Source of the DNA: Candidatus Kaiserbacteria bacterium
GTDB lineage: Bacteria; Patescibacteriota; Minisyncoccia; Phycocordibacterales; Phycocordibacteraceae
Length of the DNA: 64,000 bases
Direction of reading: 5' to 3'
Assembly: GCA_963699165.1 (NCBI GenBank)
Contig: OY969413.1
Coordinates: 404,562 to 468,561 of the forward strand
Shown here piece by piece: positions 19,300 through 43,753 of this stretch (the stretch's first letter is position 1; every line of letters begins with the position of its first letter). Below the pieces are notes generated by a model that did no database searches, was not told the DNA's origin, and saw nothing but the letters and a program-made list of their open reading frames with translations. A program made the translations under genes and the position numbers.

Positions 19300-21624
19300 T
19301 TAAAATTCCGAAAAACCTGTCGTCGAGACATTCACCACGAGCGGTACGTTGATAGTGTTGTTGAGAATGTCGGTGCACTTAAACAGGAATGCCGTTTGCG
19401 AGACGAGGCCATTCACCGCATAGGTACCCGATGTCGCGGAACCGCTCACGACTGGTGCCAAGACCGCGGTTCCATTTTTGTAAAGTGTGCAGCTTTGAAC
19501 CAACGTGGCCGCATACGAGAGCGTCGTATTGCCCCCGAGCGGCACGCGGGTATTCGTCGCGGTGAGTGAAATGGTCGGCTGGATAACGGTGATTGTCGGG
19601 AACGGCGGTATGGGGAAGGTATCGCAGGTCAGCCCGAAAGAATACGTTCCGGCCGTACCAAAGGGCCCGACCGTAGTATCGGAGCCGCTTGTTTGCCCCC
19701 CGGTCGAAAATCCATAGGAATTTGAGGTCTGGGTGCAGGAACTGGCGTTGCTGCATGTCCAGGTGAGCGTATCCGTATCGCCGACCTTGATACTCGATTT
19801 GCTCACGGAAATTGTGCAAGCCGGGGCGGGAGCGCAGCTATTTGTGACCGGATTAAACACGAGCGACGACGTGCATTTGTTGCAGCCGCTTGTCGGATTG
19901 GTCGCGCCGTTTGAACATTCGGAACAGGAGGCAGAGCTTCCGCCGCCGCTTCCGGCACAAGTCCATGTATAGAGCGGGGGTACGAACTGATTTGCACCTG
20001 ATGTACCGGGTGCGCAGTTGTAGTGAGTGGAGGCACAGACGCCGTTAACTGCGGCAGCGCATTTATTCCCGTCCCAGCTGCTACCCGAGGCGCAGTTGCC
20101 CGAAATGAGTACGCTGCCGAGCACGTTGCCACCGCTGTCTTTGAGAACAAGCGTTACGGGACTATAGACGCCGGTATCCGTCTGCGAGCCGTTTATTCCG
20201 GTCCACAGTGTTCCACCGCCCTGCTGAACAACGGACGCACTCGGCGTGTTTGACGTATTCCATGAGACGGTTACCGGACACCCGCTTTGTCCCGCTGCGA
20301 CAGTGCAAGGATTCGGGGATGCCGTGATGATGCCGGTGGGTGCGGCAGGCGGGCCGTTCACCGTAAAGCTGCTAACTGTCCATGCCGGCTGGTACGACAT
20401 TGCCGAATTAGCGCAAAGTGATCGTATGTTGTGCACACCGGGAGACAAACCGGTCACGTTCCACGTTCCGGAGGTGAAATATCCGGGACTGGTAGGACCG
20501 CCGTATCCCGAAATGTCTACAAAACCGTTGCCGTCATTTTTGTCGATGTTGACGTTGCAGTAGTATGCTGCGGCCGAGGAAGTGAGTTTAATCGTAGCAG
20601 TTCCTGTTGTCCCGCCTCCCGTGTTGTATAGGACGGGGTTTGGGGACTCTGTAACCGAAGATGTCGGAAGCGGGCAGCTCGAATCCGAAGGCGTGCTCGC
20701 GGAACACGTTCCATCGCACTGAACAGTGCCCGTATTCGTTTGTCCGCAGGCGTTGGCGGCGGAGGTGCAGGCATTTCCGTAGCCGGAAGGATTGGCGGGC
20801 GTGCTCGCGGAACATGCGCCATTACACTGAATGGTGCCCGAGTTCGTTTGGCCGCAGGAATTTGCGGCAGAGGTGCAGGCATTTCCGTAGCCGGAAGGAT
20901 TGGCGGGCGTGCTCGCGGAACATGCGCCATTACACTGAATGGTGCCCGAGTTCGTTTGTCCGCAGGCGTTGGCGGCGGAGGTGCAGGCATTTCCGTAGCC
21001 GGAAGGATTGGCGGGCGTGCTCGCGGAACACGTTCCATCGCACTGAACAGTGCCCGTATTCGTTTGGCCGCAGGAATTTGCGGCAGAGGTGCAGGCATTT
21101 CCGTAGCCGGAAGGATTGGCGGGCGTGCTCGCGGAACACGTTCCATCGCACTGAACAGTGCCCGTATTCGTTTGGCCGCAGGAATTTGCGGCAGAGGTGC
21201 AGGTGCTGCCGTTGCCGGCAGCGCATGCCACGGTGATATTTGCAGAGCAGACGGCCCGCTGTTGCTGAGATAGTCCCGTAATTGTCACCCATGGACCCGT
21301 ATACGTTACTGTACCCGTTTGAGTCGGACACGCTATTCCTGTGGCGCCAAAGTCATAGTTTGCACACAGATTCCCTATGGTAAAAGTGGTCCATGTACCT
21401 CCTGTGTATTGACCGGTGCCGCTGACTTTCACGGAAATCGATTGCCCATAGCTCACGGTCTGTGAAGGTGAAACGGTAATGGAACAGAAAGGTAATATAC
21501 ATGGTTGCAGCCCGCAATTACTATAGGCCACTGCACGATTTGCACCAACCGCTAAAGAAGAAAAAGCGAATAAAACAGAAAGGAGAACGATAAGGTTCCC
21601 TCGAGACCGCATACTCTGATTCAT
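19300..21624 (-). CDS. Large secreted Cys-rich repeat protein (adhesin-like), about 775 aa
   Basis: Signal peptide MNQSMRSRGNLIVLLSVLFAFSSLAVGA, five to six near-identical 36-aa repeats (CSASTPANPSGYGNACTSAANSCGQTNTGTVQCDGT), then further Cys-rich Ig/PKD-like modules. Confidence 0.65.
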   Translation of the reverse strand: MNQSMRSRGNLIVLLSVLFAFSSLAVGANRAVAYSNCGLQPCILPFCSITVSPSQTVSYGQSISVKVSGTGQYTGGTWTTFTIGNLCANYDFGATGIACPTQTGTVTYTGPWVTITGLSQQQRAVCSANITVACAAGNGSTCTSAANSCGQTNTGTVQCDGTCSASTPANPSGYGNACTSAANSCGQTNTGTVQCDGTCSASTPANPSGYGNACTSAANACGQTNSGTIQCNGACSASTPANPSGYGNACTSAANSCGQTNSGTIQCNGACSASTPANPSGYGNACTSAANACGQTNTGTVQCDGTCSASTPSDSSCPLPTSSVTESPNPVLYNTGGGTTGTATIKLTSSAAAYYCNVNIDKNDGNGFVDISGYGGPTSPGYFTSGTWNVTGLSPGVHNIRSLCANSAMSYQPAWTVSSFTVNGPPAAPTGIITASPNPCTVAAGQSGCPVTVSWNTSNTPSASVVQQGGGTLWTGINGSQTDTGVYSPVTLVLKDSGGNVLGSVLISGNCASGSSWDGNKCAAAVNGVCASTHYNCAPGTSGANQFVPPLYTWTCAGSGGGSSASCSECSNGATNPTSGCNKCTSSLVFNPVTNSCAPAPACTISVSKSSIKVGDTDTLTWTCSNASSCTQTSNSYGFSTGGQTSGSDTTVGPFGTAGTYSFGLTCDTFPIPPFPTITVIQPTISLTATNTRVPLGGNTTLSYAATLVQSCTLYKNGTAVLAPVVSGSATSGTYAVNGLVSQTAFLFKCTDILNNTINVPLVVNVSTTGFSEF
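20660..21250 (-). repeat. 108-bp tandem repeat, about 5.5 near-identical copies, inside the 19300..21624 CDS
   Basis: Periodicity is visible directly in the DNA (gcaggcatttccgtagccggaaggattggcgggcgtgctcgcggaaca...). The repeats generate the opposite-strand shadow ORFs 20661..21236, 20740..21273 and 20517..21146. Confidence 0.85.
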
Positions 21625-21802
21625 TATTTTAAGTATACTAAAAAAAAAGCACCTGAACCGATACCGCGAGATTAGTGTGGACAACTTTGTCCGCTCGGGT
21701 CGGGGTTTTCGGTGCGCGGTGGCAATTAGTCGTATGAAATAGGAAAACCGGCTCGCTTGTGGCGAGCCGGCGTTCTTGGTGGTCACGGTGACCTGAGGCG
21801 GT

Positions 21803-22300
21803 CTACTGCGACCGCGGGTACAGGACGACCACCGCGGGCTCGTCCTTCAGCACCGTGCTCGGCACCTGATCGAGCTCGTATCTGCTGACCGAGAACAGCC
21901 GCGGCACACCGGTCGGCGCGCCGACGCTGTCGAACGCGAGAACGCGGGCCCGGCCGTCGGTGGCCGGGATGACGATGTAGTACCCCTGAAGCGGCTGCCC
22001 GCCCCAGGCGGTCTCGAAATCGACGGACCCCGGCGACTTCGAAAAGAATCGGGTGCCGTACTGCAACCCGCCCGGGTTCGTGTTGGCGTATGCGCTCGAA
22101 AGCGCGTCCGCCTGCTGGGGCGTGAACTCGTCAGCGGCGCTCACGGGTCCGAGGCGAACGCCTTGGCCCGTCGAGAGGATGTCGAACGATCCGACCACCG
22201 CGGTCGGGTCGATCGCGTCGGCGCTCGCGAACGAGGGCGCTCCGACGAACGCGGCCAAGGCGAATGCTGCCGCCAGGATTCCGTTGAACCTGATGATCAT
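21803..22300 (-). CDS. Secreted hypothetical protein (165 aa), atypically high GC (about 66%)
   Basis: Signal peptide MIIRFNGILAAAFALAAFVGAPSFASA; strong SD AAAGGAGG at -9; consensus promoter upstream. Codon usage differs from neighbours. Confidence 0.6.
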   Translation of the reverse strand: MIIRFNGILAAAFALAAFVGAPSFASADAIDPTAVVGSFDILSTGQGVRLGPVSAADEFTPQQADALSSAYANTNPGGLQYGTRFFSKSPGSVDFETAWGGQPLQGYYIVIPATDGRARVLAFDSVGAPTGVPRLFSVSRYELDQVPSTVLKDEPAVVVLYPRSQ

Positions 22301-22355: not shown

Positions 22356-22385
22356 AGTATACTGCACAGGTATGTTATTTGTCAA
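22356..22385 (-). promoter_or_regulatory. Near-consensus sigma70 promoter TTGACA-18-TATACT for the 21803..22300 gene
   Basis: Minus strand reads cgggcTTGACAaataacatacctgtgcagTATACTtggg. IS copy 1 ends 5 bp upstream of the -35 box. Confidence 0.5.
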
Positions 22386-23425
22386 GCCCGTGTACGCGTC
22401 CAGTACTTTTGGCAGTCCCCGACGGTTAATGTACACACAATATACCGCAAGGGGGACACCATGCCGAGCGACTGGTGCGGGCGTTTGGTGTTGTACCAAA
22501 TCAGCCAGTCGACAAGCTTCAGATTGAAGGAATGAATATCGTCCCGCAGCAGGCCCCGATTCAGCATGATGAAGTCCTCGGAGACGGTGCGATTGAATCG
22601 TTCGACGTGGGCATTCATCTTGGGAGTGCGGGGGCGGGTGTGAAAGTGCGTGAGCCCGAGTTCGGCACAGGCATCCTCGAAGTGTTTGGCGAACTCGCTC
22701 CCGTTGTCGGTCTGCAACTCGTCGATATCGAAGGGGCAAACCTCGATGACTCGGCGAAGGAAGTCGTCCGCGCTTCTCGACGAGTGGTTCGTATACGCGC
22801 CCGCAAAGGCGAACTTCCGCTCCACGTCCACTGCCGTGAGGACGTACCGCTTCACGCCGTCGATGAAGCGGACGACGGTATCGAGCTCCATGCCGCGCTT
22901 GCCGGTGCGGCGAAGCTTGGTACGGCGTTTCTGCGGTGTTTCCGTGTGATTGCCCGTACGTGCGTGGAACGAGAGCCGGCTCTGCTGCGGGAGCAGACCG
23001 CGGTTCTTCAAATCCAGAATGACCCGCCCAACGTATGACTCCGACACGGAGTACCCTTCTTCGCGCAGGAGAACGGCAAGCTTTGCTTTCCCAAGCCGGG
23101 GATGCGCCTGTCGTTCGCGGATGATGAAATCCTCGACCTCGGGCAGAACAGTCCTCCTTCGACGCGCCTTCGGCGCAGTGCTCTTCGGGTCAAGTGCATC
23201 AATGCGGCCCTCGTGGGCTTTGAGTTCCTCCTTCCAGCGATACAAGGTGCGCTCCGAGGTGCCAAAGGCGTCGTATGCGGCCTCCGTCCCGTGCATGTCC
23301 CAGAATCCCAATATCTTCACCCGTCTGTCGACTTCCTTTGGTTTCCGCATATGCCGCAATCGTATCGTCCTTTCCCACATGCTCAACCAGCCCTTCGTAC
23401 CCCTGAAATTGCTTCTGATGTGCAT
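22382..23425 (-). CDS. IS481-family DDE transposase (rve integrase core), copy 1
   Basis: N-terminal HTH (GTSERTLYRWKEEL) plus integrase core with TAVDVERK, DNGSEF and HVERFNRT motifs (D, D, E). The stop codon lies 2-3 codons beyond the IS end. Confidence 0.85.
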   Translation of the reverse strand: MHIRSNFRGTKGWLSMWERTIRLRHMRKPKEVDRRVKILGFWDMHGTEAAYDAFGTSERTLYRWKEELKAHEGRIDALDPKSTAPKARRRRTVLPEVEDFIIRERQAHPRLGKAKLAVLLREEGYSVSESYVGRVILDLKNRGLLPQQSRLSFHARTGNHTETPQKRRTKLRRTGKRGMELDTVVRFIDGVKRYVLTAVDVERKFAFAGAYTNHSSRSADDFLRRVIEVCPFDIDELQTDNGSEFAKHFEDACAELGLTHFHTRPRTPKMNAHVERFNRTVSEDFIMLNRGLLRDDIHSFNLKLVDWLIWYNTKRPHQSLGMVSPLRYIVCTLTVGDCQKYWTRTRA

Positions 23426-23470
23426 ATATCCTCGGTTATGAGGACTGCCAAATGTATCTGAACTTATGCA
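22391..23470 (-). mobile_element. IS481-like insertion sequence, copy 1 (1080 bp); ends TGCATAAGTT...GCGTACA; about 28-bp imperfect inverted repeats; 5-bp TSD GCCCG
   Basis: Near-identical (1-2 SNPs) to 31601..32680 and 42639..43718. TSD gcccg at 22386-22390 and 23471-23475. Confidence 0.85.
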
Positions 23471-23475
23471 GCCCG

Positions 23476-23503
23476 TGTACGCGATCGGGACATTTAGCAG
23501 CCC
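23476..23503 (+). repeat. Degenerate solo terminal inverted repeat of the same IS family, abutting the TSD of copy 1
   Basis: tgtacgcgatcgggacatttagcagccc versus IRR TGTACGCGTCCAGTACTTTTGGCAGTCC. Its outer end faces copy 1 across the 5-bp gcccg. Confidence 0.45.
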
Positions 23504-23534
23504 GCGACGGACGTAATGCCGATAGAGCTCGCCA

Positions 23535-23583
23535 GGAGTTTCGCGCCGGCACTTGGGAAGGTCTGACCTTCCCAAGTGCCGGC
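23535..23583 (+). terminator. Long GC-rich hairpin plus T-run (intrinsic terminator-like) between the IS relic and uppP
   Basis: gccgg(g)cacttgggaaggtc-TGA-ccttcccaagtgccggc followed by gCTTTTTc. The stem core CTTGGGAAGG/CCTTCCCAAG recurs at 60356-60380. Confidence 0.5.
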
Positions 23584-23625: not shown

Positions 23626-24399
23626 ATGACTTTTTTGCAGAGTTTTCTGCTCGGTATCGTCGAGGGTGCGACCGAGTTTCTGCCGGTATCTTCGACCGGA
23701 CACCTCATCTTGGCCTCTACCCTGCTCGGCGTTGTCCAAAGCGACTTTGCAAAGACATTTGAGATTGTCATTCAACTTGGCGCGATACTTGCCGTCGTCG
23801 TGCTATATTGGCGCTCATTTTTCAATCTCGAACTCTTGAAGAAACTTGTCGTGGCATTTATTCCGACCGGCATTATCGGGCTCGCCGCATACCACTTCTT
23901 GCAAACCTATCTGCTTGGCAATGACTGGGTCGTGATTGTCTCGCTCTTCCTCGGCGGCATCGTCCTCATCGCGTTTGAAAAATGGCACGGGAAAATCGAG
24001 GACGCCGCGCCGGGGACGTCAATCACCTACCGGCAAGCGGCGGCCATCGGACTCTTTCAGGCGATTTCGATTATTCCGGGCGTCTCTCGAAGCGGCGCGA
24101 CTATCGTGGGCGGCATGTATCTCGGCATCAAGCGCGCAACCATCGTCGAATTTTCATTTCTGCTTGCCGTACCGACCATGTTCGCGGCGACCGGCTTGAG
24201 TTTATTTAAAACGAATTTCGCGCTTTCGCAAAATGAATGGCTGGTCCTCGGCATCGGTTTCTTAACCGCCTTCGTCGTGGCGCTCGCGAGCATCCACTGG
24301 CTCTTGGGCTACGTGCGAAAACATTCTTTCACCGGCTTCGGCATCTACCGCATTGCGCTTTCAGTCGCATTCGCCGTCTATCTTTTCCTTCAACTCTAG
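23626..24399 (+). CDS. uppP: Undecaprenyl-diphosphatase
   Basis: Signature EGATEFLPVSSTGHLIL and ISRSGATIVGG motifs; eight-TM BacA/UppP architecture. Confidence 0.9.
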   Translation: MTFLQSFLLGIVEGATEFLPVSSTGHLILASTLLGVVQSDFAKTFEIVIQLGAILAVVVLYWRSFFNLELLKKLVVAFIPTGIIGLAAYHFLQTYLLGNDWVVIVSLFLGGIVLIAFEKWHGKIEDAAPGTSITYRQAAAIGLFQAISIIPGVSRSGATIVGGMYLGIKRATIVEFSFLLAVPTMFAATGLSLFKTNFALSQNEWLVLGIGFLTAFVVALASIHWLLGYVRKHSFTGFGIYRIALSVAFAVYLFLQL

Positions 24400-31582: not shown

Positions 31583-31600
31583 ATTTTGCACAGCAAAAAA

Positions 31601-32680
31601 TGCATAAGTTCAGATACATTTGGCAGTCCTCATAACCGAGGATATATGCGCATCAGAAGCAATTTCAGGGGTACGAAGGGCTGGTTGAGCATGTGGGAAA
31701 GGACGATACGATTGCGGCATATGCGGAAACCAAAGGAAGTCGACAGACGGGTGAAGATATTGGGATTCTGGGACATGCACGGGACGGAGGCCGCATACGA
31801 CGCCTTTGGCACCTCGGAGCGCACCTTGTATCGCTGGAAGGAGGAACTCAAAGCCCACGAGGGCCGCATTGATGCACTTGACCCGAAGAGCACTGCGCCG
31901 AAGGCGCGTCGAAGGAGGACTGTTCTGCCCGAGGTCGAGGATTTCATCATCCGCGAACGACAGGCGCATCCCCGGCTTGGGAAAGCAAAGCTTGCCGTTC
32001 TCCTGCGCGAAGAAGGGTACTCCGTGTCGGAGTCATACGTTGGGCGGGTCATTCTGGATTTGAAGAACCGCGGTCTGCTCCCGCAGCAGAGCCGGCTCTC
32101 GTTCCACGCACGTACGGGCAATCACACGGAAACACCGCAGAAACGCCGTACCAAGCTTCGCCGCACCGGCAAGCGCGGCATGGAGCTCGATACCGTCGTC
32201 CGCTTCATCGACGGCGTGAAGCGGTACGTCCTCACGGCAGTGGACGTGGAGCGGAAGTTCGCCTTTGCGGGCGCGTATACGAACCACTCGTCGAGAAGCG
32301 CGGACGACTTCCTTCGCCGAGTCATCGAGGTTTGCCCCTTCGATATCGACGAGTTGCAGACCGACAACGGGAGCGAGTTCGCCAAACACTTCGAGGATGC
32401 CTGTGCCGAACTCGGGCTCACGCACTTTCACACCCGCCCCCGCACTCCCAAGATGAATGCCCACGTCGAACGATTCAATCGCACCGTCTCCGAGGACTTC
32501 ATCATGCTGAATCGGGGCCTGCTGCGGGACGATATTCATTCCTTCAATCTGAAGCTTGTCGACTGGCTGATCTGGTACAACACCAAACGCCCGCACCAGT
32601 CGCTCGGCATGGTGTCCCCCTTGCGGTATATTGTGTGTACATTAACCGTCGGGGACTGCCAAAAGTACTGGACGCGTACA
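31601..32680 (+). mobile_element. IS481-like insertion sequence, copy 2 (1080 bp), 5-6-bp TSD AAAAA(A)
   Basis: Same ends as copy 1; flanked by aaaaaa on both sides. Confidence 0.85.
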
Positions 32681-32689
32681 AAAAATTGA
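31646..32689 (+). CDS. IS481-family DDE transposase, copy 2
   Basis: Identical protein to copy 1 apart from the flank-encoded tail (..YWTRT then KN*). The TGA stop at 32687-32689 lies outside the IS within TTGACT. Confidence 0.85.
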   Translation: MRIRSNFRGTKGWLSMWERTIRLRHMRKPKEVDRRVKILGFWDMHGTEAAYDAFGTSERTLYRWKEELKAHEGRIDALDPKSTAPKARRRRTVLPEVEDFIIRERQAHPRLGKAKLAVLLREEGYSVSESYVGRVILDLKNRGLLPQQSRLSFHARTGNHTETPQKRRTKLRRTGKRGMELDTVVRFIDGVKRYVLTAVDVERKFAFAGAYTNHSSRSADDFLRRVIEVCPFDIDELQTDNGSEFAKHFEDACAELGLTHFHTRPRTPKMNAHVERFNRTVSEDFIMLNRGLLRDDIHSFNLKLVDWLIWYNTKRPHQSLGMVSPLRYIVCTLTVGDCQKYWTRTKN

Positions 32690-32731
32690 CTGCTGCAGTT
32701 GCATATGATTTTATCAAAAAGGAGGATTAAC

Positions 32732-32884
32732 ATGGAGTTCTACGAAGAGTATGTCGCACCACTTCCAGCGGTAAACGCCCGACAATTCGAGGGCATACCA
32801 CCACAACATAGTAACCGGTTCACCGCCATTACCATCGACCCAGACAAAACCGACGAGGGACCGCTGCTTCTTTCCAGCAACTAA
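32732..32884 (+). CDS. Small acidic protein (50 aa) with canonical SD, immediately downstream of IS copy 2
   Basis: aaaAAGGAGGattaacATG; protein MEFYEEYVAPLPAVNARQFEGIPPQHSNRFTAITIDPDKTDEGPLLLSSN; followed by hairpin acgagccca-cctcg-tgggctcgt plus a T-run. Confidence 0.35.
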   Translation: MEFYEEYVAPLPAVNARQFEGIPPQHSNRFTAITIDPDKTDEGPLLLSSN

Positions 32885-40486: not shown

Positions 40487-41020
40487 ATGGGAAAGGGGCA
40501 AGCGACATCCGTGTCGCTCACCCCTTTCTAGCAACCGCGGCGACATGACGGCGGCATTGCGCCGTGCGGCGGTGTCGTGATCACCTCCCTTCGACTTCTG
40601 TTACCTGGGGTTACAAAAGCCGAAGAGAGGATGCAAGGTTGCCATGATGCCTCCTAGCGCGAGATGTGCAGATTGGCGACTAGTCTTTTGAATTCGAACG
40701 TTTGATACATTGAGCGAATGAAAAAACCTCCGGCGGTGCGCACTTCACAAGGTCCGAACGAGACGAAATACAGATACTGTTAGCGAAGGGATACTCTTTG
40801 CAAGATGTCGGAGATGCACTCGACCGACCGAAGAGTGTCATATGGTACGAGACGCAAAAGAAGAGGAAGGGACGGCCGTATGATGCTGCATATGCGCATC
40901 ACATTTCATACGTACGAAGGAAATACAGCCGAGCGGTCGGCAAGATGATTGCTCTCGACCCGAAGCTCCGGAAGTTCATCGAGGCGGGTATTCAGACTCT
41001 GTTGGCACAGCTCCCGTATC

Positions 41021-41824
41021 ATGGAAGCTATGTACACGCTCAAACAAATTCCGTCTGAAGTGCAGATTAGAAAGTTTTTGCGGCGAACGTTGTTCGGAAA
41101 GAATGTGTTTTGCCCGCTCTGCCGCTCGCGCAGGATTGTGCGGTACGAAGACCGGTACCGGTGTGTTGCCTGCCGCCGAAGGTTCTCGCTCCTCTCGCAT
41201 ACCTGGCTCTCAAACCTCAAGCTTCCGCTCCAGACGTGGTGGATGCTCCTCTGGTGCTGGACGATACGAGAACCCGTCTTGCAGGCCATGGAGCTCACGC
41301 ATTTGCCTGAACGAACGATACGCCGCTGGTATGCCACCTTTCGTGAGCATTTGCCCCAAGAAGAGCATATTCTCGAGCGTATCGTGCAGATGGACGAGGC
41401 ATATTTCAAGAACGCAGCTCTCGTGATGGCCAAGCAGAAAGGAACGAGAAAGCTTGCCTATACCGTCATGCACAATCGCTTCCCGAACAAGACGGACGTG
41501 ATGGACTTTCTCTTTGCCAAAGTGAAGCCGGGGAGCGAGTTGTGGACCGATGGCGGTTCGATATACCGGGGTGTCGGCAAGCGATGGCCGGTCTCCCACA
41601 GCAGAGACATTCATTCAAAATTCGAGTTCGAACATACCTCCGAAATCGAAGGCGTGTTCGGCGTATACCGCACCTTTGTGCGGAGGATGTATCATCATCA
41701 CTGGAGCGAGAACCTCGAGCAATACGTGAGGGAATTCTGCTTCAGATTTTCCTCACCGGAATTGTTCGGAAATCCGCGCACTTACTTATTAAAATCATTA
41801 ACGCTTGTGCCAACTCGTTCTTAA
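41021..41824 (+). CDS. IS1595-family (ISXO2-like) transposase with N-terminal zinc ribbon
   Basis: CPLCRSRRIVRYEDRYRCVACRRRF zinc ribbon, then a DDE_Tnp_IS1595-like core (QMDEAYF...LWTDGGSIYRGV...HSRD...HTSEIEGVFG). Confidence 0.7.
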   Translation: MEAMYTLKQIPSEVQIRKFLRRTLFGKNVFCPLCRSRRIVRYEDRYRCVACRRRFSLLSHTWLSNLKLPLQTWWMLLWCWTIREPVLQAMELTHLPERTIRRWYATFREHLPQEEHILERIVQMDEAYFKNAALVMAKQKGTRKLAYTVMHNRFPNKTDVMDFLFAKVKPGSELWTDGGSIYRGVGKRWPVSHSRDIHSKFEFEHTSEIEGVFGVYRTFVRRMYHHHWSENLEQYVREFCFRFSSPELFGNPRTYLLKSLTLVPTRS

Positions 41825-42573
41825 TACCCATCGAGGCGCATCTCTTCGACGATCAGTCGCCCGAAAACATCTCACTTCGATTGAAGCGGATCGAGAAGGA
41901 TATCGGATATGCTTCATCCTCGGCTATACGCCGATATATCAAGAGCCCGTATGGCAGACGGATCGAGTCGCATCGAGCAAAGGTATTCAAGAAGAGGCGA
42001 CGCTCTCGGCCATCGAAACCACACATTGCCGACAAGCGCCTGATCGACAAACGACCGAGCAAAATCAACAAGCGATGGGGATTGGGTCACATGGAGGGCG
42101 ACTTCATCGTGTCGGGCAAGAGCGGTCAAGGCATCATTCTTGGTCTGCGGGATCGCAGGGTGCGCAAAAACCTGCTGGAGCGGATCCTGCCAGTGTCAGT
42201 GCGAAACGTGGAGCGAGCGCTTCGCAGAATGAAAAAGCGGTATCCCGAGATGCAGACCATCACATTCGACAACGATATTCTCTTTCTCGAACACAAACGG
42301 CTAGAGAAGGTGCTTGGGGTGAAGATATATTTCTGTCATGTGCATGCGCCATGGGAGAAGCCATCAATCGAGAATCTGAACAAGGACTTGCGGCGGTACA
42401 TCCCGAAAAGCTCGGATATTTCAAAGTATTCAAAAAGATTTGTGCAGAAACTCGAAGCAAAGATGAATCGCCGCTTCATGGATGTGCTCGGTTCACTCAC
42501 GCCAGATGAGGCGTATGCTGCGGAAAAGAAACAACGCGCTCAGAGGAGCGCAAAAAACCGTCGTTCGAATTGA
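41825..42573 (+). pseudogene. IS30-family transposase, N-terminally truncated (about the C-terminal 250 aa only)
   Basis: WGLGHMEGDFIVSGKSGQG, ITFDNDILFLEHKRLEKVLGVKIYFCHVHAPWEKPSIENLNKDLRRYIPK and MDVLGSLTPDE match the IS30 DDE core. No N-terminal HTH. Begins exactly where the IS1595 transposase stops. Confidence 0.6.
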
Positions 42574-42629
42574 GGGGTTTGGGTGCCATTGGTTTCCCAT
42601 TAAGATACTCGTATATGAAGGATTGTTTG

Positions 42630-43673
42630 TCAATTCATTGTACGCGTCCAGTACTTTTGGCAGTCCCCGACGGTTAATGTACACACAATATACCGCAAGG
42701 GGGACACCATGCCGAGCGACTGGTGCGGGCGTTTGGTGTTGTACCAGATCAGCCAGTCGACAAGCTTCAGATTGAAGGAATGAATATCGTCCCGCAGCAG
42801 GCCCCGATTCAGCATGATGAAGTCCTCGGAGACGGTGCGATTGAATCGTTCGACGTGGGCATTCATCTTGGGAGTGCGGGGGCGGGTGTGAAAGTGCGTG
42901 AGCCCGAGTTCGGCACAGGCATCCTCGAAGTGTTTGGCGAACTCGCTCCCGTTGTCGGTCTGCAACTCGTCGATATCGAAGGGGCAAACCTCGATGACTC
43001 GGCGAAGGAAGTCGTCCGCGCTTCTCGACGAGTGGTTCGTATACGCGCCCGCAAAGGCGAACTTCCGCTCCACATCCACTGCCGTGAGGACGTACCGCTT
43101 CACGCCGTCGATGAAGCGGACGACGGTATCGAGCTCCATGCCGCGCTTGCCGGTGCGGCGAAGCTTGGTACGGCGTTTCTGCGGTGTTTCCGTGTGATTG
43201 CCCGTACGTGCGTGGAACGAGAGCCGGCTCTGCTGCGGGAGCAGACCGCGGTTCTTCAAATCCAGAATGACCCGCCCAACGTATGACTCCGACACGGAGT
43301 GCCCTTCTTCGCGCAGGAGAACGGCAAGCTTTGCTTTCCCAAGCCGGGGATGCGCCTGTCGTTCGCGGATGATGAAATCCTCGACCTCGGGCAGAACAGT
43401 CCTCCTTCGACGCGCCTTCGGCGCAGTGCTCTTCGGGTCAAGTGCATCAATGCGGCCCTCGTGGGCTTTGAGTTCCTCCTTCCAGCGATACAAGGTGCGC
43501 TCCGAGGTGCCAAAGGCGTCGTATGCGGCCTCCGTCCCGTGCATGTCCCAGAATCCCAATATCTTCACCCGTCTGTCGACTTCCTTTGGTTTCCGCATAT
43601 GCCGCAATCGTATCGTCCTTTCCCACATGCTCAACCAGCCCTTCGTACCCCTGAAATTGCTTCTGATGCGCAT
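42630..43673 (-). CDS. IS481-family DDE transposase, copy 3
   Basis: Same protein as copies 1 and 2; the stop codon TGA is supplied by the flank within TTGACA. Confidence 0.85.
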   Translation of the reverse strand: MRIRSNFRGTKGWLSMWERTIRLRHMRKPKEVDRRVKILGFWDMHGTEAAYDAFGTSERTLYRWKEELKAHEGRIDALDPKSTAPKARRRRTVLPEVEDFIIRERQAHPRLGKAKLAVLLREEGHSVSESYVGRVILDLKNRGLLPQQSRLSFHARTGNHTETPQKRRTKLRRTGKRGMELDTVVRFIDGVKRYVLTAVDVERKFAFAGAYTNHSSRSADDFLRRVIEVCPFDIDELQTDNGSEFAKHFEDACAELGLTHFHTRPRTPKMNAHVERFNRTVSEDFIMLNRGLLRDDIHSFNLKLVDWLIWYNTKRPHQSLGMVSPLRYIVCTLTVGDCQKYWTRTMN

Positions 43674-43718
43674 ATATCCTCGGTTATGAGGACTGCCAAA
43701 TGTATCTGAACTTATGCA
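42639..43718 (-). mobile_element. IS481-like insertion sequence, copy 3 (1080 bp), 5-bp TSD TTCAT
   Basis: ttcat at 42634-42638 and 43719-43723. One coding SNP (Y to H) relative to copies 1 and 2. Its left end lies about 30 nt upstream of the hisS start. Confidence 0.85.
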
Positions 43719-43753
43719 TTCATCCGGCGTGCAGGCTGTGATAAACTTTGAGA

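Follow-up and report, generated by a model that had tools for sequence, protein, structure and literature searches.

How does an insertion sequence (IS) choose the place where it lands? The question is raised by a stretch of 64,000 nucleotides from a Candidatus Kaiserbacteria bacterium (assembly GCA_963699165.1, contig OY969413.1, positions 404,562 to 468,561), hereafter called the window, in which repeat finding and alignment identify three IS481-like copies of 1,080 bp each, with 4 differing positions overall. As the original prediction for this DNA had claimed, all three stand 5 bp upstream of TTGAC(A/T), read in the transposase direction, and the intervening 5-mers are duplicated. Judging from the flanks of these copies and of their relatives, the subfamily to which the element belongs enters in one orientation, with its right inverted repeat (IRR) 5 bp upstream of a sigma-70-type −35 box, and duplicates those 5 bp. 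The target appears to be the whole promoter, composed of the −35, a 17-bp spacer and the −10, rather than the TTGAC word. We regard promoter targeting as such as nearly certain.

Copy 1 (22391-23470, found by repeat finding and by its Pfam and NCBIfam matches) and copy 3 (42639-43718) carry the transposase gene on the minus strand, and copy 2 (31601-32680) carries it on the plus strand; the latter two were located by repeat finding. In the transposase direction, the left inverted repeat (IRL) is TGCATAAGTTCAGATACATTTGGCAGTCC and the IRR terminates in ...GGACTGCCAAAAGTACTGGACGCGTACA; these terminal repeats are imperfect and about 28 bp long. All three copies finish with ...TGGACGCGTACA, followed by five bases and TTGAC(A/T), so that the junction has the form GCGTACA-N5-TTGAC(A/T). 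Read in the same direction, the target duplications are perfect and 5 bp long in each case. The duplication of copy 1 is CGGGC, on the promoter side at 22386-22390 (GCCCG on the plus strand) and on the other side at 23471-23475, where it is common to copy 1 and to the relic described below. The duplication of copy 2 is AAAAA (31596-31600 and 32681-32685), and that of copy 3 is ATGAA (TTCAT on the plus strand; 42634-42638 and 43719-43723). The 5-mers originally given for copies 1 and 3 were correct, but the six adenines given for copy 2 were not: the element begins with TGT like the other copies, and the duplication is therefore 5 bp. Since the IRR, the duplicated 5 bp and the −35 follow one another, the insertion point lies immediately upstream of the −35 hexamer, near −41 in the standard numbering. 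Insertion leaves both the core promoter and the gene behind it undamaged, with the transposase gene pointing towards the latter. From the −35 onward, the stretch between the −35 and the −10 included, the otherwise identical copies diverge completely. The probability of finding TTGAC at one offset in all three copies by chance is about 1e-5, that is, (1/1024)^2 multiplied by the offsets one might inspect.

We take the window element to be present as three recent copies of an IS481-like IS from a large subfamily, which is abundant in Patescibacteria, also called the Candidate Phyla Radiation (CPR), and has members in Proteobacteria, including Escherichia coli and Klebsiella (ISKpn28-like), as well; its hosts range from ultra-small groundwater bacteria to E. 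coli. The relatives were gathered with an alignment of 30 family proteins, which yielded 80 metagenomic and 80 GTDB loci (L001-L160). A GTDB scan with a single protein gave no match, and an exact look-up of P0001, a protein 100% identical to the copy 1 transposase, returned no encoding contig. The relatives share 36-76% amino acid identity, are nearly all from Patescibacteria/CPR, and provide 116 non-redundant right-hand flanks. The position matrix of these flanks has the consensus N5-TTGACA-N17-TGnTATAAT. Counted from the right end of the IS, the commonest bases at +6 to +11 are T (96%), T (91%), G (87%), A (72%), C (78%) and A (62%); farther on, +26/+27 favour TG and +29 to +34 fit TAnnnT. 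The enrichment of TTGAC at +6 that the three window copies had led one to expect is thereby present in the family: exact TTGAC begins at +6 in 74 of the 116 flanks, and no other offset has it in more than 2. Departures from the full word mostly retain TTG, which is present at 94 of the 116 sites, and this is the conservation profile of a −35 box, not that of a TGA stop codon. The flanks on the IRL side hold no signal (TTGAC in 1 of 91). The motif is thus confined to the IRR side, which means that the orientation of insertion is fixed.

The second promoter element is conserved as well. An in-register −10, with a spacer of 16-18 bp, is present at 105 of 115 sites, as compared to 10% of control positions (p = 3e-92). 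Even where the hexamer has three or more mismatches to TTGACA, 20 of 22 sites possess an in-register −10 (p = 2e-18), as in TGGTGT and GGGTGG, each followed by TATAAT; the two exceptions score barely under the −10 threshold, and no site is clearly without both elements. The best-scoring −10 lies 17 bp from the −35 at 66 sites, 16 bp at 20 and 18 bp at 19. Right flanks lacking TTGAC, which had been named in advance as evidence against the rule, do occur, since about one third of the sites are without the exact word; yet these keep the −10 in register. Consequently, the earlier proposal of insertions directed to −35 regions holds, among the 116 relatives and in E. coli, as far as direction is concerned, but the −35 alone does not describe the target, which includes the −10.

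The surroundings of these sites also resemble those of promoters. A same-strand open reading frame (ORF) begins within 250 nt downstream in 58 of the 75 loci that have at least 350 nt of flank. Three of the ORF-less loci (L081, L121 and L136) have a 16S or 23S rRNA gene downstream, with the IS about 270-345 nt before the start of the mature rRNA, and their targets are presumably rRNA operon promoters. No tRNA gene lies downstream of the IS in the 17 ORF-less loci; the single match (L097) is upstream of the element. No AT-rich UP element was found upstream of the insertion point, where the AT content is 54-59%, and a trade-off between the quality of the −35 and that of the −10 is visible as a weak trend. 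Apart from a preference for C at position 5, the duplicated 5-mers have no consensus. The rule is also obeyed by a member on a Nitrosophilus plasmid (AATAA-TTGACT-18-TAAAAT, given as duplication, −35, spacer length and −10) and by one from Thiofaba (CGCCC-TTGAGA-17-TAATCT).

Does the rule extend to a distant host? Searches of plasmids by tblastn and of E. coli genomes by megablast identified a 1,096-bp relative, annotated as IS481 family and ISKpn28-like, whose transposase shares 37% identity with that of the window as far as an equivalent ...WTHT end and scores 221.6 bits against the IS481 profile. Of 5,426 complete genomes, about 1,100 carry this element, among them that of enteropathogenic E. 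coli (EPEC) E2348/69. A single chromosome has as many as 37 copies, and a single genome 38 places; 37 copies are counted in E. coli IAL7255. Inspection of 27 places in E. coli, E. albertii and Klebsiella gave 13 distinct sites with perfect 5-bp duplications. Four of them lie at hok/gef-type loci, namely hokD (TCTCC-TTGCCT-17-TAACCT), hokA (CTGTG-TTGATT-17-TAACCT), hokB (TCTCC-TTGCCG-17-TAAGAT) and another hok/gef locus (AGCGC-TTGCTC-17-TAACCT), and two lie at ldr loci (CCTTG-TTGTAA-17-TATTCT and CTGTG-TTGTAA-17-TATTCT). The others are upstream of sthA (ATCAA-TTGGCT-17-TACCAT), adjoining mnmH (GCTGT-TTGAAT-17-TATAAT), in a P2-like prophage (ACACT-TTGATC-17-TAAAAT), inside an IS66 (CGCGC-TGGAAT-17-TAAAGT), upstream of ybaQ (GAGAC-TTGTTT-17-CAGTAT), inside a gene for an Ig-like adhesin (ATCTC-TTGACT-17-TAACAT) and inside a gene for a Rha regulator (GCATA-TTGATT-17-TACACT). 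TTG stands at +6 in 12 of the 13 sites, and TAnnnT follows after exactly 17 bp in 12 of the 13, as compared to a chance of about 1/64 for TAnnnT at a fixed position. Conservation of the −35 is limited to TTG at these sites, and two of the promoter-like sites interrupt genes (L180 and L181).

Several observations weigh against this account of promoter targeting. Of the window copies, copy 1 alone adjoins a strong −10. Copy 2 has the −35-like TTGACT at 32686-32691 on the plus strand with the weak −10 TTTTAT at 32709-32714, and copy 3 has TTGACA at 42628-42633 on the minus strand with the weak −10 GAGTAT at 42605-42610. The −35 next to the IS is conserved at about 80-95%, as compared to about 40-60% in ordinary promoters of the same loci, a rough and noisy set. 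A matching 5-bp duplication is found at the expected left end in only 25 of 96 relatives. In the enterobacterial set, the copies on a Klebsiella plasmid (L161), an E. coli plasmid (L169) and two E. coli chromosomes (L164 and L184) have neither matching duplications nor promoter-like flanks, and the site of L168 is weak. Finally, under selection by colistin, ISKpn28 was reported to lie at +91 within mgrB (PMC6101004). The unrelated 5-mers of the other 71 relatives display the base preference of true duplications, favouring C at the fifth position of the right-hand 5-mer and the complementary base on the left side. This suggests that the two ends stem from different insertions, which were brought together by recombination between IS copies, presumably a frequent event, or by chimeric assembly over the 1-kb repeat. 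For IS481 itself, rearrangement is documented as a reason for missing duplications (PMC11708052). We treated L161, L164, L169 and L184 as rearranged; the first three look rearranged or degenerate.

Could the hexamer be read directly, by a DNA-binding domain of the transposase or its complex on naked DNA, so that the link to the −10 and to genes reflects only the survival of harmless insertions? Four observations fit this explanation. The −35 holds about 6.5 bits and the −10 about 2 bits; the −35 boxes adjoining the IS are closer to the consensus than those of ordinary promoters in the same loci; copies 2 and 3 of the window combine TTGAC with a weak −10; and the position of the IS is fixed to the −35, with the best −10 ranging over spacers of 16-18 bp. 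However, a reader of the hexamer alone should not favour the 20 of 22 sites in which a poor hexamer, such as GGGTGG or TGGTGT before TATAAT, is accompanied by an in-register −10. Moreover, the E. coli element keeps just TTG, a word that occurs about once per 64 bp, and yet has TAnnnT at the precise distance of 17 bp in 12 of 13 sites, and its two gene-interrupting insertions are contrary to pure survivorship. The association with the −10 is therefore not a by-product of hexamer reading followed by purging in this host. We consider direct reading of the hexamer unlikely, while granting it more weight than any other alternative to recognition of the promoter.

A second alternative arises from the way in which the transposase gene ends. 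The transposase of copy 1 is encoded by a single 347-codon ORF without a frameshift (22382-23425, minus strand), which extends from nucleotide 46 of the IS to the TGA (22382-22384) inside TTGACA; its product has the C-terminus ...YWTRTRA. Matches to Pfam rve (8.5e-12), rve_3 (3.5e-16) and HTH_32 indicate a DDE core with an N-terminal helix-turn-helix (HTH). The best IS-family profile of NCBIfam is IS481 (NF033577), which is matched over nearly its whole length with E = 7e-54; the score of 183.2 bits does not reach the curated cutoff of 224. Accordingly, we place the element by its sequence as a divergent IS481-like one, and its length, inverted repeats and 5-bp duplication fit that family (about 1 kb, duplications of 4-15 bp). 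The ORF has no stop codon within the element. Reading continues past the last base of the IRR through two extra codons, made of the 5 duplicated bases and the first T of TTGAC, and the TGA of TTGAC then terminates it, at 32687-32689 in copy 2 and at 42630-42632 in copy 3. Among the homologues listed (62-100% identical), 117 of 120 have the C-terminal ...WTRT, and 99 of these 117 end exactly 2 residues beyond it. These two residues are hypervariable; the last can be encoded by NNT in 99 of 99, and the first is unconstrained. TGA occupies +7 to +9 in 76 of the 116 family sites, or about two thirds, and the −35 box of the target thus also supplies the stop codon of the transposase at most family sites.

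Accordingly, one might suppose that only copies landing before a TGA produce a normal transposase and spread, and both the frequency of TGA and the common end point of the proteins, 2 residues beyond the IS end, would follow. In that case any stop codon would serve, yet TAA and TAG are nearly absent from the position. Furthermore, T at +6 (96%) and C at +10 (78%), which lie outside the codon, are more conserved than the A of TGA (72%), and the sites without TGA retain TTG and the −10. At the stop position the E. coli element also accepts TGC, TGT and TGG, and its annotated ORFs end 10-70 nt past the IS (coding sequences of 1,047-1,107 nt). Selection for the stop codon is thus very improbable as the origin of the motif. 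The idea that TTGACA and the −10 are the element's own outward promoter, and the 5-bp repeat no true duplication, would account for a motif that always adjoins the same element end, but it is hardly credible, because the duplicated bases separate the IS end from TTGACA in the 3 window copies, 25 relatives and 13 E. coli sites, because identical copies differ completely from the −35 on, and because the E. coli flanks are recognisable host loci (hokA, hokB, hokD, ldr and sthA). The same duplications exclude that TTGAC belongs to the element, the other eventuality that had been held against the original prediction.

What happens to the target after an insertion? Immediately outside the left duplication of copy 1, where a degenerate IS end had been noticed, a repeat search (80% over 41 nt) finds a solo IRR, the relic of an older related IS, at 23476-23510 on the minus strand. 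The relic comprises 35 nt, and its alignment to the IS end has 33 identities in the first 40 columns, the shared GCCCG counted. In the transposase direction, the layout is the 35-nt IRR-like relic, CGGGC, copy 1, CGGGC and TTGACA. A first insertion leaves N5-TTGACA whole beside its IRR, and this explains the arrangement: as the target persists next to the IRR, a further copy can enter the same 5 bp and displace the older one upstream. The relic is therefore the end of an older copy, which copy 1 displaced when it entered the same 5 bp. The double use of one 5-mer proposed for this site is thus borne out by the layout, and similar stacking is present among the relatives. In L048, the IRR of a different family member is followed by 5 bp and the IRL; in L051, the IRR is followed by 5 bp and the IRL of a different family member; and L047 has a partial relic that shares the duplication. 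Such tandem IRR-5 bp-IRL junctions also place TGGACN and TAAGTT 15 bp apart.

How, then, might the transposase find promoters? We think it probable, by a modest measure, that the site is chosen by recognition of a promoter occupied by the RNA polymerase holoenzyme. Three features of the sites favour such guidance by the polymerase. The sites share what the polymerase needs for binding, a −35 and/or a −10 at 17 bp, even where no −35 is recognisable. The distance from the insertion point to the −35 is constant in spite of the variation in spacer length. In addition, what determines the site has no symmetry and is not part of the duplicated bases, a feature shared with protein-guided systems. In the model, the transposition complex would dock beside sigma region 4 at the −35 of the polymerase-bound promoter, and targeting of promoters would offer the element a safe landing site in gene-dense genomes. 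The broadest form of the proposal is that a DDE transposase guided by the promoter-bound holoenzyme can enter essentially any sigma-70 promoter, from Patescibacteria to E. coli, with the −35 doubling as a stop codon; to this we give an even chance.

The promoters and genes beside the window copies differ in quality. At copy 1, a consensus scan places the −35 TTGACA, which doubles as the transposase stop, at 22380-22385 and the −10 TATACT at 22356-22361, both on the minus strand. TTGACA-18-TATACT matches the consensus at 11 of 12 positions, in agreement with its earlier description as a near-consensus promoter of the gene at 21803-22300 (minus strand). This gene has a good Shine-Dalgarno sequence and encodes a 165-residue product with a signal-peptide-like N-terminus, for which a Pfam search gave no match. 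Downstream of copy 2 lies a 50-codon ORF (32732-32884, plus strand) with a strong ribosome-binding site, AAAGGAGG. No protein gene follows the TTGACA of copy 3 on the minus strand. A terminator-like hairpin, TGCGCTCCTCTGAGCGCG, with a T-run is found about 77 nt downstream of it (42535-42552, minus strand), and a short RNA from the copy 3 promoter, antisense to the 3′ end of the ORF at 41542-42573, is possible.

That ORF (plus strand, 343 codons) has no Pfam match and overlaps an IS1595-type transposase gene beside copy 3 (40949-41821, plus strand; DDE_Tnp_IS1595 and a zinc ribbon); it is another mobile-element remnant. Farther along the minus strand from the copy 1 promoter, 19300-21786 encodes an 828-residue Cys/Thr/Gly-rich protein, predicted to be secreted, whose gene contains about five tandem 108-bp (36-residue) repeats at 20690-21229 (...CGQTNTGTVQCDGTCSASTPANPSGYGNACTSAANS...). 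On the other side of copy 1, a perfect G+C-rich hairpin followed by TTTTT (23528-23580, plus strand) separates the IS relic from uppP, which starts at 23626. There is no plus-strand gene upstream of this hairpin, which may serve as an orphan terminator or belong to a leader.

Some features of the element itself deserve mention. The conserved 347-codon ORF is preceded by 45 nt of the element, and its start codon and the element's own promoter are ambiguous. Within the IRL, a promoter-like TTGGCA-17-TATATG (IS nucleotides 1-50, for example 23421-23470, minus strand) has a −10 that overlaps the first ATG. We also considered whether the transposase reads a TTGNCA word shared with its own inverted repeats (TTTGGCAG), and rejected this candidate, since the relatives carry TATGAG there. 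The 90%-identity cluster of P0001 mixes transposases with many IF-3 proteins and is unusable for counting copies; the IF-3 entries may be a clustering artefact, or may derive from transposase ORFs that read into infC downstream of the IS.

In E. coli, the IS recurrently lies between a hok or ldr toxin ORF and an oppositely oriented leader promoter (hok loci: L167, L171-L174, L176-L178, L182, L185 and L187; ldr loci: L165 and L183). This leader promoter stands where we would expect the antisense Sok or Rdl promoter. Insertion at these loci should therefore separate the toxin ORF from its own promoter and leave the promoter of the antitoxin RNA intact.

How does this rule of target choice compare with those of known systems? 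The IS481 family, with IS481 and IS1002 of Bordetella and ISKpn28 of Klebsiella, resembles the window element in its single rve transposase with an HTH, its length of 1.0-1.1 kb, its short inverted repeats and its 5-bp duplication, whereas the window element scores under the curated cutoff (183 versus 224 bits) and has an ORF without an internal stop. IS481 proper uses the palindromic target NCTAGN within a 6-bp duplication. The window element lacks this target; its landing site is specified by a promoter, an asymmetric feature beyond the duplicated bases. Known landmarks of targeted bacterial transposition are attTn7, Xer sites, repetitive extragenic palindromic (REP) elements and those of RNA-guided systems. 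Tn7 uses TnsD, a dedicated target-selector protein, to recognise attTn7 at one conserved gene end. In common with Tn7 and other protein-guided transposons, the present element inserts in one orientation at a fixed distance from a landmark outside the duplication, in a safe haven; it differs from Tn7 in encoding a single protein and in having thousands of possible landmarks per genome. The retrotransposons Ty3, Ty1 and Tf1 possess integrase-type DDE enzymes and integrate at a fixed position upstream of transcription units through the transcription machinery or promoter-bound factors. By analogy, the element would share with them DDE integration at such a position and the avoidance of gene damage. 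In contrast, those elements are eukaryotic and RNA-mediated and rely on factors of RNA polymerase III (Pol III) or II, and the present one is a bacterial DNA transposon at sigma-70 promoters.

The closest described analogue in behaviour, with respect to orientation, offset, 5-bp duplication and stacking, is the ISAba32 subgroup of the IS1202 family, which acts in almost the same way. Its members enter next to a XerCD site, always the same way round and at a distance of 5-6 bp, and duplicate 5 bp; the mechanism is left unexplained, and several insertions can stack at one Xer site (10.1101/2022.12.17.520857). The landmark of that subgroup is the XerC/XerD site, approached by the IRL, whereas here it is a sigma-70 promoter, approached by the IRR. 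The transposase families appear to differ as well: that of the ISAba32 group is distantly related to those of IS481 and IS3 (10.1101/2022.12.17.520857), and no IS1202 profile is among the NCBIfam and Pfam matches of the window transposase. The consensus of the 116 flanks is TTGACA-N17-TATAAT, and not the 11-6-11 Xer site. In the full-text literature, we found no −35 or promoter targeting for IS481-type elements; a prior note in ISfinder or TnPedia is possible.

If the rule is true, the use of the promoter as a landmark, with single-base precision and in one orientation, would be a new principle of target choice. It would account for the multiplication of these elements in the tiny, gene-dense genomes of the CPR without the destruction of genes, and recombination between copies is then predicted to reshuffle transcription units as wholes instead of breaking them. 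With a transposase gene and an IRR-bound transposase immediately upstream of the host −35, regulatory effects are plausible. Because relatives in E. coli look active, in EPEC E2348/69 and in strains with 14-37 copies, both the rule and its mechanism are directly testable. If guidance by the polymerase is true, the element may permit the delivery of DNA just upstream of promoters, and it would correspond in bacteria to Ty3, which lands at Pol III genes.

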